Below are positions 35,169 through 64,000 of a stretch of 64,000 nucleotides of DNA, in pieces. Origin of the DNA: Dehalococcoidia bacterium (lineage in GTDB: Bacteria; Chloroflexota; Dehalococcoidia; SM23-28-2; HRBIN24); the NCBI GenBank assembly GCA_035574155.1, contig DATLZD010000045.1, forward strand, positions 741 to 64,740. The letters run 5' to 3'. Within the stretch, counting starts at the first letter, position 1, and every line of letters starts with the position of its first letter. The notes below the pieces were generated by a model. The model did not search any database and was not told the origin of the DNA. It saw nothing but the letters and a program-made list of their open reading frames with translations. Both the position numbers and the translations under genes were made by a program.

Positions 35169-35522
35169 GGGGACGAGCGGGTTTCGACAGGGAAGGTCGG
35201 GCCCGGACAGCAGGCCGAGGTCGCCACAGCCCTCGCTAAACAGGTGGCAAAAAGTAACTGGCGAGCGCGAACTCGCTCTCGCCGCCTAAGAACTAGGCGG
35301 CGCGTTGCCCCGGCCCTCCTCCTGCGGGCCGGAAGCGGCGCCAGAGAGCAGGGGTGCCGCCTCCCCGACGCCGATAGGGGCGGCGTAAGACAGATCGGCT
35401 GGCCCGTCGGCACGCAGCCAGCGGCGGTACGACGGGCGAGAGCCAAGCGCTGGCTAAGCCTGTAGCCGGTCCGGGTTGGTCTTCCCCTGGACGAGGGGTT
35501 CGACTCCCCTCCGTCTCCACCA
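35169..35522 (+). ncRNA. ssrA: tmRNA (SsrA); predicted tag reading frame GGC-GAG-CGC-GAA-CTC-GCT-CTC-GCC-GCC-TAA, tag (A)GERELALAA
   Basis: 5' GGGGACGAGCGGGTTTCGACAGGG..., 3' ...GGACGAGGGGTTCGACTCCCCTCCGTCTCCACCA (tRNA-like T-arm and acceptor). An A-run then GUAACU precedes the resume codon, as in E. coli. The tag ORF is at about 35260-35289. Confidence 0.85.
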
Positions 35523-38388: not shown

Positions 38389-38469
38389 CGGCTCCTATGC
38401 TATCACGCCCACCGGCAAGCTTGACGGGGGCAGCGGCCTATGTTAAGAAGAGGGCGACCGACAACCGCA

Positions 38470-38635
38470 TAGGCTGTCTCCCGGGTGCCCGCAAGGGCCT
38501 AACAGGGAAGAGGGGTAAAAGCCCCCGCGGCCGCGCCACTGTGAGCGGGGAGCCCCGGCAAGGGCCACTGTCCCGGCAGGGGATGGGAAGGCGCCGAGGG
38601 CGACGATCCGCCAGCCAGGAGACCTGCCCGGGAGA
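38470..38635 (+). promoter_or_regulatory. cobalamin (AdoCbl) riboswitch
   Basis: GGTGCC...AACAGGGAAG...GGTAAAAGCC...CCGCGCCACTGTGAGCGGGG...GCCACTG...GGGAAGGCG...AGCCAGGAGACCTGCC, the B12-box consensus. About 90 nt upstream of cobN. Confidence 0.8.
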
Positions 38636-38727
38636 CGGGCGCGGACCTCCTCGCGTCGGGGAGGGCGCCCAGGTGGGCCGTATGGCCTCTCCTGTCCGCT
38701 CTCCCCCAGGGGCGGGGGAAGCGGACG

Positions 38728-58809: not shown

Positions 58810-59548
58810 CGGACCTGATCTCGTCTGGGGTGCCCTCGGCGATGACCTCGCCGCTGCTCATGACGATGATAGGGTTGCAGAGGCGCATCACCAGGTCCAT
58901 GTCGTGCTCCACGATGAAGAAGGTGATGCCCCGTCGGTGACAGAGGTCCTCGATGACGGTCACCAGGCGACGCATGAGGACCGGATTGACACCGGCCCCG
59001 GGCTCGTCCAGAAGGACCAGCTCCGGGTCGCACATCAGGGTCCGGGCCAGCTCCAGAAGCTTCTTCTGACCGGCGGAGAGGTTGGCGGCATACTCGTCCC
59101 TCAGGTGGGCCAGGTCCACCAAGTCCAGCACTGACATGGCCTTCTCGAACAGCTCTTCCTCCTGCCGCGCCACCCTGCCGGGGAAGAGCCAGACGTTCCA
59201 GAGCAGCTCCCCCTTCTGGCCCGGTGGCACCAGCATCAGGTTCTCCAGGACCGTCATAGCGCCCAGGGGACGCGGGATCTGGAAGGTCCTGGCTATTCCC
59301 CGGCGGAAGACCTGGTGGGGCGGAAGGCCGTCGATGCGTTCCCCACGGAAATAGATGGACCCAGAGGTGGGGCGCAGGAAGCCGGTGATGAGGTTGAAGA
59401 GGGTCGTCTTGCCGGCCCCGTTGGGCCCGATGAGGCCGGTGATGGTGCCCTGCCGCAGCCGCAAGGTGCAGCCGTTCACCGCCCGCACGCCGTCGAAGGC
59501 CTTGGTAAGGGCGCGGGTCTCCAGCAGAGGGGCCTTGGTGGTGTCCAT
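58751..59548 (-). CDS. livG: ABC transporter ATP-binding protein (LivG-like)
   Basis: GLIGPNGAGKTTLFNLITG..., signature LSAGQKKLLELARTL. Confidence 0.85.
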   Translation of the reverse strand: MDTTKAPLLETRALTKAFDGVRAVNGCTLRLRQGTITGLIGPNGAGKTTLFNLITGFLRPTSGSIYFRGERIDGLPPHQVFRRGIARTFQIPRPLGAMTVLENLMLVPPGQKGELLWNVWLFPGRVARQEEELFEKAMSVLDLVDLAHLRDEYAANLSAGQKKLLELARTLMCDPELVLLDEPGAGVNPVLMRRLVTVIEDLCHRRGITFFIVEHDMDLVMRLCNPIIVMSSGEVIAEGTPDEIRSDERVLEAYLGGQYLHSERP

Positions 59549-59644
59549 AACCAGCGACGGACGGCCAGAATACCCCTATGGGCCGACCCTCAGTATATGT
59601 GGCCGATGCTGTGTGTCAATCGGCAGCCCTGGTCACCAGGGCCG

Positions 59645-59905
59645 TCAGGCAGGGGCTATGGAACGGAGGTAGTGATAGTGGCAGGAGAGGCGGGCGCCCG
59701 GACGCCCCTCTGGCTCCAGTACCGCCACCGTGCCGTCCAGGGCATCGATGACGCCCACCAGGGTGCCGACCACCGCCGGCCCGAAGGGCGAGGCAGGGTC
59801 CAGCTCCAGCCGGACCCGTTGCCCCAGGTGACGGCGCAACTCCTGCGGGTCGAGACGGCTGCCCTGTCGTTGGCGTTCCACGAGGTGCCTCCCGTCGCGC
59901 ACCAT
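59645..59905 (-). CDS. small hypothetical protein (86 aa)
   Basis: GC3-biased ORF between tRNA-Arg and livG. No recognisable family. Confidence 0.3.
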   Translation of the reverse strand: MVRDGRHLVERQRQGSRLDPQELRRHLGQRVRLELDPASPFGPAVVGTLVGVIDALDGTVAVLEPEGRPGARLSCHYHYLRSIAPA

Positions 59906-59944
59906 GATGGAGCAATCGGCGTATATCTGGTCAGGGGCACCACC

Positions 59945-60020
59945 TGGCGCCCCAGGAGGGACTCGAACCCCCGGCCCGCGGCTTAGGACGCCGCCGCTCT
60001 TCCTACTGAGCTACTGGGGC
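59945..60020 (-). tRNA. tRNA-Arg (anticodon CCT), CCA encoded
   Basis: Reverse complement GCCCCAGTAGCTCAGTAGGAAGAGCGGCGGCGTCCTAAGCCGCGGGCCGGGGGTTCGAGTCCCTCCTGGGGCGCCA. A cloverleaf folds by hand with anticodon loop GTCCTAA. Confidence 0.8.
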
Positions 60021-60165
60021 ACCCATCCGATATTGTATCCCCCCGCACCTTCCTGTAAACCCCGACACCGGCTGCCTGGCGTGGGCCAATGGCCTCGGAA
60101 CGGGATATAGATTAGGTTGACGCCCATGGTCTGAATTTGTATCCTCCGCAGGGGAGGTGTTAGCG

Positions 60166-60852
60166 ATGGCGCCGAGGTCCGGCATCGGGAACGACGCGCC
60201 CACGCCCACGGTTGAGGACTACTTGCATGCCATCTACAGCCTGCTCGGCGAGGGCGAAACGGTGTTCTCCGCCCGACTGGCCCGCCGCATGCGGGTGACG
60301 CCGCCCACTGCCTGGGCCACCGTCCAGCGCATGGTGCGCGACGGCCTAGTGACCCTGGACAGCAAGAAGGTGATCCACCTGACCGAGAAGGGCAAGCGGC
60401 TGGCCGAGGACATCGTGCGCCGCCACCGGCTGGCCGAGCGCTTCCTGACGGACGTCCTGGGCCTGGGCTGGGCCGACTGTCACGAGGAGGCCCACCTGTT
60501 CGAGCACGCCCTCACCCCCAGGCTGGAGGAGCGCATCGTCGCCCTGCTGGGGAACCCGACCACCTGCCCCCACGGCAGCCCCATCCCCGGCTCGGGCGCC
60601 ACCCTGCCGTCCGACCTGGTGCCGCTGGCATCCCTGGGCGCAGGGGAGGAGGCCACCATCGAGTTCATCTCCGAGGAGCTGGAGGAGGACCTGGACCTGC
60701 TCCGTTACCTTGAGCGGGGCCGCATCATGCCGGGCCGCCGGGTACGAGTGGTCGAGGTCGTGTCGCCCAGCGAGCTGATGGTGGTGGAGTCGGACGGCCA
60801 GCAGGTGCCGCTAGGGCTGAAGGTGGCCCAGAAGATACGCGTCCGCCGCTAG
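60166..60852 (+). CDS. DtxR/IdeR/MntR-family metal-dependent transcriptional regulator with a C-terminal FeoA/SH3-like domain
   Basis: TVEDYLHAIYSL...HTH, metal-site residues (CHEEAHLFEH), and a C-terminal SH3-like domain. The ATG at 60166 is preceded by GGAGG. Confidence 0.8.
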   Translation: MAPRSGIGNDAPTPTVEDYLHAIYSLLGEGETVFSARLARRMRVTPPTAWATVQRMVRDGLVTLDSKKVIHLTEKGKRLAEDIVRRHRLAERFLTDVLGLGWADCHEEAHLFEHALTPRLEERIVALLGNPTTCPHGSPIPGSGATLPSDLVPLASLGAGEEATIEFISEELEEDLDLLRYLERGRIMPGRRVRVVEVVSPSELMVVESDGQQVPLGLKVAQKIRVRR

Positions 60853-60982
60853 CGCCCTCCCCCCTCCTCGGTTGACGCCGGGGGGTCCCGGTGCTAGACT
60901 TTCTCTTGCTCAGCAGAAGAGGGGGTCGACGCCTTCCGAGGTCGGGCTCGGCCCTTTCTCTGTGTAAAAACGGGACGGGCGG

Positions 60983-61246
60983 ATGCGCAGGCGCTGGTTC
61001 CGGTTCGGCTTCTACGCCCCCTTCGGCTTCTGGCTGAGGGGCTTTCACGGGGCCTGGGGCGGCCCCTGGCACCGCCACGGCCATCGCCCCTTCTCTCTCC
61101 TGCGGGACTACCGTCGCTGGCTGGAGGAGTACCGTCAGGACCTCCAGCAGGCGCGGCAGGAGCTGGAGGAGGAGCTGAGAGAAGTGGAGGCCGAGCTGGA
61201 GCGCCTGCGAGGCGCTCGAAAAGAGGAGGAGAGACAGGGCCCTTAG
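60983..61246 (+). CDS. DUF5320-like small protein (Gly/aromatic-rich N-terminus plus C-terminal coiled coil)
   Basis: RWFRFGFYAPFGFWLRGFHGAWGGPW followed by EEELREVEAELERLRGARKEEE. GC3-biased codons. Confidence 0.45.
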   Translation: MRRRWFRFGFYAPFGFWLRGFHGAWGGPWHRHGHRPFSLLRDYRRWLEEYRQDLQQARQELEEELREVEAELERLRGARKEEERQGP

Positions 61247-61282
61247 TCTGGGGAAGGCACCTTCCCCAACGGAAGCGGTCAG

Positions 61283-62272
61283 ATGCTGACGACGGTCGTA
61301 GGACACTACCCGAAGATACCCAACCGCCCCAGGCCGGCCCGACTGCGCCAGGCCATCGCCCGCTACGAACGGGGAGAGATCTCCCGACAGGAGCTGGCGA
61401 GGATCGAGGACGAGGTGACCGTGGAGGTCATCCAGGAGCAGATCGAGGCCGGCATCGACATTATCAGCGACGGGCAGATCCGCTGGGAGGACGACCAGAC
61501 CTACATCGCCCGCCGCCTCTCGGGCTTCGACATCAACGGCCTGGTCCGGTACCTGGACACCAACACCTATTTCCGCCAGCCGGTGGTGGTGGGCGAGGTC
61601 CGGCACCGGGAGACGTTCCTGGTCCAGGACTGGCGCTTCGCCCAGAAACACAGCCCTCGTCCGGTCAAGGCCATAGTCACGGGGCCCGTTACCCTGGCCA
61701 GGCTGTCCCGGGACGAGCACTACCACGACCACCGCCGCCTGGTGATGGCCCTGGCGGAGGCCCTGGCACCTGAGGTCAAGGCCCTGGCCGAGGCCGGCGC
61801 CCCCGTCGTCCAGGTCAACGAGCCGCTGATCCTCTGGCACCCCGAAGACCTGCCCCTCCTGCGCGAGGCCCTCCAGGTCATGTTGGCCGGGGTCGCCTGC
61901 GAGACTGCCCTATACACCTGGTTCGGCAGCATCGAGCGGGTCTATCCCCAGCTCCTGGAGCTGCCCGTGACCACCATCGGCATCGACCTGGTCTCCCAGC
62001 CCCGCAACTGGCAGGTGCTGGGCCAGCACGCCTTCCCAGCCGACCGGAAGCTGGGGGCGGGCATCGTGGACGGTCGCAACACCCGCCTGGAGTCGGTGGA
62101 GGAGATCGTGGCCTCGGTCCGGCACCTGACCCGCATCGTCCCGCCAGACCGCCTCTACCTCAACCCCAGCTGCGGGCTGGAATACCTGCCGCGGGAGGTG
62201 GCCCAGGACAAGCTGCGCCGCTTGGCCGAGGGCGCCCGTGCCGCCCGTCAGGCCCTGGGGGTGGAGGCCTGA
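61283..62272 (+). CDS. MetE-like (UroD/MetE barrel) protein lacking a complete Zn site; cobalamin-independent methionine synthase N-domain-like
   Basis: MLTTVVGHYPKIPN...ISDGQIRWEDDQTY..., short (329 aa) MetE-family barrel. It has SCGLEYL but lacks the H-x-C motif. Confidence 0.6.
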   Translation: MLTTVVGHYPKIPNRPRPARLRQAIARYERGEISRQELARIEDEVTVEVIQEQIEAGIDIISDGQIRWEDDQTYIARRLSGFDINGLVRYLDTNTYFRQPVVVGEVRHRETFLVQDWRFAQKHSPRPVKAIVTGPVTLARLSRDEHYHDHRRLVMALAEALAPEVKALAEAGAPVVQVNEPLILWHPEDLPLLREALQVMLAGVACETALYTWFGSIERVYPQLLELPVTTIGIDLVSQPRNWQVLGQHAFPADRKLGAGIVDGRNTRLESVEEIVASVRHLTRIVPPDRLYLNPSCGLEYLPREVAQDKLRRLAEGARAARQALGVEA

Positions 62273-62273
62273 G

Positions 62274-63272
62274 ATGAGGGACGCACTGCTCACCAGTGCC
62301 GTCGGCTCCTACCCCAAGCCCGACTACCTGGTGCGGGCCCGGAACGCTTATGCCCAGGGCAAGCTGGACGTGCAGGAACTGCGGCAGCTGGAGCGGAAGG
62401 CCACCGAAGACTGGGTCCGCGTACAGGAACGGGTGGGGCTGGACGTGCTCGTCCACGGCGAACAGGAGCGGGGCGACATGGTGGCCTACTTCGCCGGCGA
62501 GCCGGGCGGAGTGGTCATCGAGGGCATGAAGCTGGGCGGTCTCGTCCGCTCCTACGGCAACCGATACTACCACAAGCCCATCATCGCCGGTAAGCTGCGC
62601 TGGCCCGGCCCCATGACGGTGGACATGTGGCGCTTCACCCAGTCCCTCACCGACCGGCCAGTGAAGGGCATGCTCACCGGGCCCTACACCATGGTGGAGT
62701 GGTCCTTCAACGAGTATTACCCCACCAGGGAAGAGGCCGTCATGGACATGGCCCTGGTCATTCGTGAGGAGGTGAAGGCCCTAGTCGCCGCCGGCTGCCG
62801 CTACATCCAGATAGACGAACCGGCCATTCACACCCGCCCCGAGGAGGACTTCGACATGGCAGTAGAGGCCTTCCGGCGGGTGGTGGAGGGCATAGACTGC
62901 GAGTTCCACACCCACATCTGCTACGGCCCCATCGAGAAGATATACCCTGAGATGCTGCGGCTGCCGGTGCGACAGATACACCTGGCCTTCAAGAACACCG
63001 GCTTCCAGTACCTGAAGCTGCTGGAGGAGCACCCCTGGCCCGCCGACAAGGTGCTGGGGGTGGGCGTCACCGACGTGCACAACCATAAAGTGGAGTCGGT
63101 GGAGGAGGTGGTGGAAGGCATGAAGCTGGTGCTCAGGCTGCTGCCACCGGAACAGGTGTGGGTCCTGCCCGATTGCGGCCTCAAGACCCGCACCCCCGAA
63201 GAGGCCGAGGCCAAGCTGCGCGTCATGGTGGAGGGCGTGCAGCGGGTGAAGCGAGAACTGGGACTGGACTAG
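62274..63272 (+). CDS. MetE-like catalytic barrel with an intact Zn/homocysteine site (short cobalamin-independent methionine synthase homolog)
   Basis: LLTSAVGSYPKP...EFHTHICYGP...LPDCGLKTR, the His/Cys/Cys Zn-ligand pattern of the MetE C-domain. Starts 2 nt after the previous gene. Confidence 0.65.
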   Translation: MRDALLTSAVGSYPKPDYLVRARNAYAQGKLDVQELRQLERKATEDWVRVQERVGLDVLVHGEQERGDMVAYFAGEPGGVVIEGMKLGGLVRSYGNRYYHKPIIAGKLRWPGPMTVDMWRFTQSLTDRPVKGMLTGPYTMVEWSFNEYYPTREEAVMDMALVIREEVKALVAAGCRYIQIDEPAIHTRPEEDFDMAVEAFRRVVEGIDCEFHTHICYGPIEKIYPEMLRLPVRQIHLAFKNTGFQYLKLLEEHPWPADKVLGVGVTDVHNHKVESVEEVVEGMKLVLRLLPPEQVWVLPDCGLKTRTPEEAEAKLRVMVEGVQRVKRELGLD

Positions 63273-63277
63273 GAGCG

Positions 63278-63685
63278 ATGGAGAGGCTGGCACAGGTCAC
63301 CTACCAAGAGCGAGAGGCGGCCATCCTGGCGCTGGGCATCCACCTCCTGTGCGAGATGTGGGAATGCGACCGGGAGGCCCTCAACCGTCGCCGCTACCTG
63401 GTGCGCGCCCTGACGGAGGCGGTCAGGGCTGCCGGGGGCACCCTCCTGGGCATCAAGTCCCATGCCTTCAAGCCCCACGGCGTCTCGGCGGTGGCCCTCT
63501 TGGGCGAGTCCCACATGTCCATCCACACCTGGCCCGAGCTGGGCTACGCCGCCGTGGACATCTTCACCTGCGGCCCCAGCATGGACCCGTACCGCGGTCT
63601 GGAGCTGCTGAAAGAGGCCGTGGGGGCGAGGCGCATGTCGGTGCAGGAGGTGCGTCGTGGCCCGGGAACAGGCCGCCTCGGCTGA
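63278..63685 (+). CDS. speH: S-adenosylmethionine decarboxylase proenzyme (pyruvoyl-dependent, SpeH type)
   Basis: GESHMSIHTWPELGYAAVDIFTCG, the class 1 AdoMetDC self-cleavage motif. Confidence 0.85.
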   Translation: MERLAQVTYQEREAAILALGIHLLCEMWECDREALNRRRYLVRALTEAVRAAGGTLLGIKSHAFKPHGVSAVALLGESHMSIHTWPELGYAAVDIFTCGPSMDPYRGLELLKEAVGARRMSVQEVRRGPGTGRLG

Positions 63686-64000
63686 GGGCAGCCCCCAGGG
63701 GCCTTTCTGGTTCACCGAGGAGCTGCCGCCCTACTGGGACCAGAACCTGCGCACCCAGCTACGTGTCCACCGCGTCCTGCACGAGGAGCGGTCCCCATAC
63801 CAGCACATCCAGGTCTTCGACCTAGGCAGCTTCGGCCGCGCCCTGCTGCTGGACGGCATCGTCCAGACGACCGAGGCGGACGAGTTCGTCTACCACGAGA
63901 TGGTGGCGCTCCTGCCCTGCCTCCAGGTAGGCAGGCCTAGGGAGGCCCTCATCATCGGCGGGGGCGATGGCGGCGCCCTGCGCCAGGTCCTGCGCTTTCG
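63656..64000 (+). CDS. speE: spermidine synthase (polyamine aminopropyltransferase), partial (3' end outside the window)
   Basis: GTG start preceded by AGGAGG-6 nt. WFTEELPP...YQHIQVFD...LLLDG..Q...DEFVYHEM...IIGGGDGG, the SpeE N-terminal motifs. The frame runs to the window end. Confidence 0.65.

Follow-up and report, generated by a model that had tools for sequence, protein, structure and literature searches.

Split MetE, in which the two domains of the cobalamin-independent methionine synthase MetE are encoded by two separate genes, was described by Price, Deutschbauer and Arkin in 2021 as adjacent gene pairs in a range of archaea and, among bacteria, in Sulfobacillus sp. hq2 alone (PMC7857596). 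Their examples include PF1268/PF1269 of Pyrococcus furiosus, a pair reported to form a complex, as well as pairs from Pyrolobus (G0EDA1/G0EFB7) and Haloferax (D4GW95/D4GW90), and the two-gene enzymes were predicted to use methyl-pterins (PMC7857596). For the Chloroflexi, their table lists MesB alone; MesB is one of the single-barrel core MetE families (MesA, MesB and MesC), of which corrinoid methyl donors are a trait (PMC7857596). Here, we report the analysis of a 64,000-nt stretch of a Dehalococcoidia genome assembly (GCA_035574155.1, contig DATLZD010000045.1, positions 741 to 64,740; hereafter, the window), near the end of which two neighbouring genes, denoted A and B, each encode a MetE-type barrel. 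On the basis of its sequences, we assign the A–B pair to the already described split MetE, as a bacterial member. The host is a heat-loving Chloroflexota bacterium, whereas the split arrangement was previously described mainly in archaea. An original prediction made from the DNA letters had proposed that the two homologous barrels of MetE are encoded here as separate proteins, and the protein families, residue patterns, tree and gene adjacency set out below all agree with that proposal.

Both proteins belong to the MetE families. In Pfam, A and B match Meth_synt_2 with 138 and 270 bits and Meth_synt_1 with 107.4 bits (cut-off 27) and 57 bits, respectively, and the two proteins align with each other over their full length at 34% identity (E = 1e-59). 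The top NCBIfam model of A and B alike is the short 'methionine synthase' NF003317 (PRK04326; A, 286 bits; B, 393.7 bits; cut-off 406). The fused-MetE model TIGR01371 gives 286 bits for B and 143 bits for A, below its cut-off of 930, and the best solved-structure relatives of both proteins are full-length MetE enzymes. B is 43% identical (257 bits) to P0130, which represents a cluster of Sulfolobales methionine synthases. This score and that of B on NF003317 serve as proxies for a published threshold, which asks of the catalytic component at least 200 bits by phmmer against PF1269 of P. furiosus. To read the active site we used the homocysteine ligands Ser433, Glu484 and Asp599 and the zinc ligands His641, Cys643, Cys726 and Glu665 (Escherichia coli numbering, PMC7857596). 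S12, E63 and D181 of B align to S433, E484 and D599, and H214, C216 and C301 align to H641, C643 and C726; B carries the motifs HTHICYG and DCGLKTR. These residues identify B as the predicted catalytic barrel of the pair.

The corresponding positions of A are different throughout, with the exception of the last cysteine, which alone is kept (NPSCGLE). Tyr and Trp stand at the His-x-Cys positions (LYTWFGS), and the positions of the homocysteine ligands Ser, Glu and Asp hold His, Gln and Asn. Because the zinc His-x-Cys and the homocysteine ligands are lost, A cannot act on its own as a zinc thiol methyltransferase, and the two proteins are thus not both complete, independent enzymes with zinc sites of their own, an outcome that the original prediction had named as evidence against itself. 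A shares with MetE N-domains and archaeal-type partners a set of N-type motifs, DTNxY, TY[FY]G and G-x-D at the Glu665 position: its long hairpin reads DTNTY, where catalytic barrels have SYGxR, LYTWFG matches TY[FY]G, and G-I-D occupies the Glu665 position. Leu is found at the Trp539 position.

We placed A in a tree of 78 rows (quick IQ-TREE search, LG+C20, with no root inferred). Its sequences came from bacterial pairs (loci L005–L009 and L017–L019), from fused MetE proteins of Chloroflexota and of a representative library, and from 80 metagenome loci that are relatives of a Sulfolobales methionine synthase, the name Sulfolobales belonging to the cluster of the query only. One branch, with a Shimodaira–Hasegawa-like approximate likelihood ratio (SH-aLRT) support of 100, leaves every catalytic barrel on one side and every partner barrel and MetE N-domain on the other, and A lies on the partner side; the partner and catalytic subtrees are congruent. 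In the approximately unbiased (AU) test, a topology in which the bacterial partners were made to group with MetE C-domains and the catalytic subunits of bacteria was rejected (delta lnL 60.7, p-AU 0.0034), and with it an origin of A by an independent or recent bacterial duplication of the B lineage. Forcing the bacterial partners together with the MetE N-domains carried no cost (lnL +1.1, p 0.53). Tree, AU test and motifs put A among the N-type barrels, in line with the original prediction, which had likened A to the N-terminal barrel of MetE for its lack of His-x-Cys.

Structure prediction, which had been proposed as a check, was run for A and gave the MetE barrel fold. The AlphaFold2 model (predicted local distance difference test (pLDDT), 92; predicted template modelling score (pTM), 0.90) fits best on MetE N barrels, those of S. 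mutans (Z 36.8) and C. albicans, with Z scores of 35.0–36.8. The single-barrel MesD structure 3RPD scores 36.7, C-terminal barrels score 30–34, and UroD-type proteins and the M. mazei methyltransferase score about 22. The A family comprises more than 1,265 matching proteins, mostly from metagenome-assembled genomes (MAGs) of Chloroflexota and Dehalococcoidia. An alignment of 45 sequences has about 80 invariant columns, in many of which the residue is Arg, Lys or Asp, indicating that the family is under purifying selection rather than decaying. We therefore assign A as the zinc-less partner subunit, the predicted counterpart of the N-terminal barrel of MetE. Some homologues of A (P0011, P0022, P0037 and P0104) are named 'methylcobamide--CoM methyltransferase' in NCBI MAG annotations; judged by the residues and the fold comparison, this name is probably a misannotation.

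The pair recurs well beyond the window. A and B are also adjacent at L005–L009, L017–L019 and L103–L110, and the phylogenetic survey that had been suggested for the gene pair shows their order and adjacency recurring in Chloroflexota, Dehalococcoidia and one Planctomycetota MAG. Two adjacent MetE-barrel genes, the archaeal split MetE arrangement, are present at 68 of the 80 Sulfolobales-type metagenome loci. A tally by phylum also took in two unpublished genomes, G038 and G227, on which none of our claims depends. As to the features by which split MetE is recognized, B (332 residues) and A (329 residues) are both within 400 residues, B has HXC...C together with Ser/Glu/Asp, and the Meth_synt_1 score of A lies above the cut-off. 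The catalytic gene precedes the partner, in reversed order, at the archaeal-type loci L061, L064, L072, L076, L078, L079, L081, L083–L085 and L088. The Chloroflexota genome G197 (L019) and its relatives of genus code g79, which are complete genomes, carry a split pair, several further short Meth_synt_2 paralogues (seven matches each) and four S-methyl_trans genes.

In the genome to which the window belongs (2.0 Mb, 86 contigs, 96% complete), we looked for other methionine synthases and for methyl carriers. A and B are its only Meth_synt_2 genes. In this 96% complete genome we found no MetH, no homocysteine S-methyltransferase (S-methyl_trans) domain and no full-length metE, the last having been named in the original prediction as a finding that would count against it. 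Nor did the same search find the corrinoid iron–sulfur protein (CoFeSP) subunit CdhD, MtrH or any methyl-transfer corrinoid protein; the sole protein with a B12-binding domain is the small subunit of methylmalonyl-CoA mutase, encoded beside MeaB and the epimerase. The A–B pair is thus the only methionine synthase of this genome. The nearest relative, G301, likewise has no other methionine synthase domain; sole-synthase status fails in G187, G256, G302 and G197, which have S-methyl_trans domains too.

A methylenetetrahydrofolate reductase (MTHFR) is present both here and in G301. The enzyme of this genome is a stand-alone protein of the YitJ type (310 amino acids; G000:C62:6278–7210, L004 1441–2373). 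It best matches the bifunctional homocysteine S-methyltransferase/MTHFR NF006396 (321 bits), corresponding to the C-terminal half of that model and lacking the homocysteine methyltransferase half. A flavin reductase-like gene follows it. AhcY is also present, so homocysteine arises at least from S-adenosylhomocysteine; a clear MetB/Y/Z-type enzyme was not found in the genome search.

We propose that A and B each provide one subunit of a split cobalamin-independent methionine synthase, which as a whole is the best explanation of the locus and, in our judgement, a likely one. B would bind zinc and homocysteine and generate the thiolate; A would dock face-to-face on B, aid closure of the cleft and hold the methyl donor. 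That donor would most likely be 5-methyl-tetrahydrofolate (methyl-THF), in polyglutamate form, from the MTHFR of the genome, and the pair, as the only methionine synthase of the cell, would recycle homocysteine at least from S-adenosylhomocysteine. Methyl-THF is the likeliest donor because MTHFR is present, because its product would otherwise have no consumer and because no corrinoid carrier was found; on these grounds we favour it over a corrinoid, with somewhat less assurance than we attach to the two-subunit reading itself. We also mapped the folate contacts of Thermotoga maritima MetE (PMC539065) onto both proteins. Trp539, the DMV motif and Arg493 (T. maritima numbering) are retained in B; in A, the Lys104 position is occupied by Arg, and the N-terminus is conserved and basic (K11, R15, R17, R20 and R22) where MetE has Arg15 and Lys18. 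We consider it probable that A and B act together as a heterodimer, with methyl-THF supplying the methyl group.

Several observations weigh against this reading. No member of split MetE has been assayed, and its GapMind status in 2026 is still 'predicted'. A fails the published operational filter, which asks that the Meth_synt_1 score of the partner exceed its Meth_synt_2 score (here 107 against 138 bits); the authors admit that true partners such as AMET1_0515 are lost by it (PMC7857596), and we treat the filter as a search heuristic rather than as a defining property. The zinc site of B departs from the canonical one. The original prediction had called the zinc and homocysteine pattern of B complete, and this holds for the His-x-Cys, the final Cys and the Ser/Glu/Asp set but not for the fourth canonical zinc ligand: the equivalent of E. 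coli Glu665 is Ala238, flanked by His236 and Lys240 (RQIHLAFKN; window 62979–62993). The same Glu665-to-Ala replacement, with Asn or His at −2 and Lys at +2, is found in the clade of the window (the window, L005, L006 and L007) and at 17 archaeal-type (Sulfolobales-type) loci (INLALKN), two clades that lie apart in the tree. Glu665 is kept in all fused MetE proteins examined except two aberrant rows, P0262 and P0268. Among the folate contacts, Arg496 is replaced with His in B. Glu583, the ligand of the pterin N3 and 2-NH2 groups in T. maritima MetE (PMC539065), is replaced with Thr in B; the 29 split catalytic subunits compared have Thr (26), Ser (2) or Ala (1) at this position. The 8-residue β4–α4 insertion of fused MetE is missing from B and from all 29 of these subunits. 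Because both Glu583 and the insertion are missing, folate binding, if any, cannot be identical to that in fused MetE. Finally, the complete genome G197 has a split pair and no PF02219 MTHFR match.

The lack of Glu583 and of the β4–α4 insertion is shared with single-domain archaeal enzymes (PMC539065), which is consistent with B being a stand-alone 'core' methionine synthase, similar to MesA or MesB, that receives methyl groups from a corrinoid protein or a free methylcobamide of the neighbouring B12 pathway and leaves A with some other role. In vitro, the short MetE homologues that have been characterized accept methylcobalamin (PMC7005905, PMC7857596), and the organism makes B12 de novo. The large B12 cluster that the original prediction placed near the pair is real: a cobalamin riboswitch at 38466–38645 (90.7 bits) opens a cluster that extends to 52454 and includes cobN, the chelatase I and D subunits, cobH/cbiC, cbiL, cbiF, cbiG, cbiH and cbiE, for de novo corrin synthesis. 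This cluster, however, is a separate unit under its own riboswitch. ABC transporter genes on the opposite strand lie between it and the A–B pair, and an Rfam search (E ≤ 1, 59500–64000) found no cobalamin or SAM riboswitch before the pair. We rejected a functional link between pair and cluster on these grounds and because no corrinoid methyl carrier was found in the genome; the corrinoid-bound donor that had been suggested thus lacks a CoFeSP, an MtrH or a methyl-transfer corrinoid protein to deliver it, whereas MTHFR is present. A core enzyme would furthermore leave MTHFR without a consumer, and A is inherited strictly along with B, its sequence being strongly conserved. We regard a corrinoid-dependent, stand-alone B as unlikely.

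A homocysteine methyltransferase that is built from A and B and uses neither folate nor a corrinoid, but S-methylmethionine, betaine or another small methyl compound, would account for the missing pterin-binding Glu583 and for the pair of G197, which occurs without a PF02219 MTHFR. The retained Trp539, DMV motif and Arg493 of B speak against such a donor, as do the basic N-terminal patch and the Lys104-equivalent Arg of A and the MTHFR genes of this genome and of G301. The enzymes known to use such compounds are members of the S-methyl_trans family, of which none was found in this genome, and we consider this alternative unlikely. It is highly improbable that A acts as an enzyme in its own right, such as a methylcobamide:CoM-type (MT2/UroD-family) methyltransferase, or that it is a decaying recent duplicate of B without function: the names of some homologues, weak URO-D hits and a Meth_synt_2 score above that of Meth_synt_1 point that way, but the His-x-Cys and all three homocysteine ligands are missing, the model of A is far closer to MetE (Z 33–37) than to UroD or the M. 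mazei methyltransferase (about 22), the invariant columns indicate purifying selection, and the AU test rejects a recent duplication from the bacterial catalytic lineage.

The two-subunit reading also bears on the evolution of MetE. In the window and its close relatives, the partner and the catalytic subunit are 34–36% identical (178–191 bits; window, 182 bits), compared with 21–33% (43–167 bits) in archaeal-type pairs, and the similarity between the N and C halves of fused MetE is barely detectable (21–44 bits). Judged by these alignments, A and B form the least-diverged barrel pair among the pairs compared. In a profile comparison, the A family scores highest with archaeal partners (470) and bacterial catalytic subunits (464), followed by MetE N-domains (299) and MetE C-domains (265). 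Bacterial B subunits and fused MetE C-domains form one clade (SH-aLRT 100), with the archaeal-type subunits outside it, and A and the MetE N-domains carry an insertion at the same N-terminal site that is missing from the other barrels. A possible, if doubtful, interpretation is that the Chloroflexota pair represents a surviving pre-fusion stage of bacterial MetE, possibly having, in this order, the small protein encoded upstream of A as a third component and an altered zinc site in which Ala takes the place of Glu between His or Asn and Lys. The data are compatible with it because the two barrels are the least diverged, because B is sister to the fused C-domains and yet has neither their β4–α4 interface insertion nor Glu583, and because A is compatible with a position as sister of the N-domains. 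Alternatively, the pair may have arisen by secondary fission of a fused MetE, with deletion.

The features of the locus are listed in Table 1. The three reading frames that the original prediction had marked (the small open reading frame (ORF), A and B) lie exactly where it placed them. A and B are in different reading frames; the TGA of A and the ATG of B are separated by a single nucleotide (62273), and GGAGG lies 6 nt 5′ of the start of B. With this 1-nt gap and the GGAGG before the ATG, the two genes look translationally coupled. We take the ATG at 62274 as the start of B, rather than the GTG upstream at 62238, because alignments of the homologues fit the former. On the 3′ side, speH begins 5 nt after B and is followed by speE, and speH also lies 3′ of the pair in L005 and L006. 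The small gene, A, B, speH and speE would form one operon, transcribed from the promoter at 60872–60900.

Table 1. Features of the A–B locus, in window coordinates (position 1 is the first letter of the window).
Feature	Position	Strand	Description
DtxR/MntR-family metal-dependent regulator	60157–60852	+	Fe_dep_repr_C, Fe_dep_repress and FeoA domains; upstream neighbour
Predicted sigma-70-type promoter	60872–60900	+	TTGACG, 17 nt, TAGACT; TG before the −10 hexamer; consensus scan
5′ leader with GC hairpin	60901–60982	+	hairpin 60936–60951, then CCCTTTCTCT
Small ORF	60983–61246	+	87 aa; aromatic/Gly-rich N-terminus, C-terminal coiled coil; DUF5320-like at sub-threshold level only
Gene A	61283–62272	+	329 aa; predicted zinc-less N-barrel-type partner subunit, split MetE
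Gene B	62274–63272 (ATG 62274)	+	332 aa; predicted catalytic Zn/homocysteine barrel, split MetE
speH, S-adenosylmethionine decarboxylase	63278–63685	+	PF02675, 130 bits; TIGR03330, 133 bits (above cut-off)
speE, spermidine synthase	63657–64000, continuing past the window end	+	PF17284, 60 bits; PF01564, 39 bits

The small ORF is a genuine conserved gene, not an artefact. Orthologues of 64–87 amino acids lie directly 5′ of the A–B pair in nine genomes of the same order, which span three family codes. Their proteins share 28 invariant columns, with an N-terminus of the form M-R-x-x-W-F-R-x-G-F-x-x-P-F-G-F-W (RWFRFGFxxPFGFW) and a C-terminal coiled coil. Compared with its HR24 relative, the small ORF of the window has 13 synonymous and 24 non-synonymous codon differences, a weak bias towards synonymous change; it is degenerated in L006, and tblastn did not detect it 5′ of the pair in the more distant L007–L009, for which sequence upstream of the pair was available. 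The original prediction described it as a DUF5320-like gene next to the pair. Its conserved place beside the pair stands, but the DUF5320 (PF17253) match, at 18.4 bits (E = 0.0049), lies below the gathering cut-off of 27; DUF5320 is the top Pfam match of 7 of 8 members of the small-protein family, in every case below threshold.

The promoter that had been read in front of the small ORF is indeed present and conserved in relatives: the −35 element TTGAC and the extended −10 element GTGCTAnAnT are kept 5′ of the small ORF in eight relatives from several families and in all genomes with the small gene. Between promoter and small ORF lies a GC-rich, terminator-like hairpin with a weak T-rich tail (60936–60960 including the tail), which is nearly invariant in the genus and in L006 and is not kept in more distant relatives. 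A riboswitch or attenuator in the leader was considered and rejected: the leader has no Rfam match (E ≤ 1, 59500–64000) and is conserved among close relatives only, and we therefore claim no RNA element there. A DtxR/MntR-type regulator with a FeoA domain directly 5′ of the small gene is also found in L103, L104 and L110, and this placement is seen both within the genus and in another family of the same order. A tRNA gene lies on the opposite strand upstream of the region of the small gene and the pair, and elsewhere in the window there is a tmRNA gene at 35169–35522 (132 bits).

Many thermophilic and halophilic archaea are predicted to have split MetE as their sole methionine synthase. A bacterial pair in a folate user, with MTHFR present and neither a corrinoid partner nor a rival synthase found, offers a clean system in which to ask what the methyl donor is and what the second barrel does. 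With 34% identity between its barrels and with B nearest to fused MetE, it also affords a view of how double-barrel MetE could have originated by duplication followed by fusion. A-type genes are common and under-annotated in Chloroflexota MAGs, and methionine synthesis in these genomes is probably under-called because such genes are misnamed and are missed by the published split-MetE filter.

The A–B pair can be compared with three described systems. The core enzymes MesA, MesB (the core MetE of Dehalococcoides, PMC7005905) and MesC have a zinc and homocysteine barrel of about 330 residues that, like B, is homologous to the C-domain of MetE, and MesB occurs in the same bacterial class; they are single barrels with no partner, tied to the Wood–Ljungdahl CoFeSP or to Mtr, and are active with methylcobalamin. 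Fused MetE (TIGR01371; T. maritima structures 1T7L and 1XPG) is built from the same two types of barrel, likewise with N before C. B shares with it the zinc His/Cys/Cys, the homocysteine Ser/Glu/Asp, Trp539 and the DMV motif, and the model of A superposes on its N barrels (Z 35–36.8). The difference is that fused MetE is one polypeptide of about 750 residues with four zinc ligands (His/Cys/Glu/Cys), rather than two polypeptides. Closest is split MetE itself, in which a short catalytic barrel and a zinc-less partner, almost always adjacent, likewise usually constitute the sole methionine synthase of the genome; B is 39–43% identical to the Sulfolobales-type catalytic subunits, whose loci share the two-gene layout. 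To known split MetE the present pairs add a spread through the Chloroflexota, the host here being bacterial (Chloroflexota/Dehalococcoidia), and a smaller divergence of the barrels, the partner being 34% identical to its catalytic mate as against 21–33% in archaeal-type pairs. They further differ in the affinity of B for the fused MetE C-domains, from which the archaeal-type subunits stand apart, in the replacement of Glu665 with Ala, and in the small conserved gene that precedes the pair.

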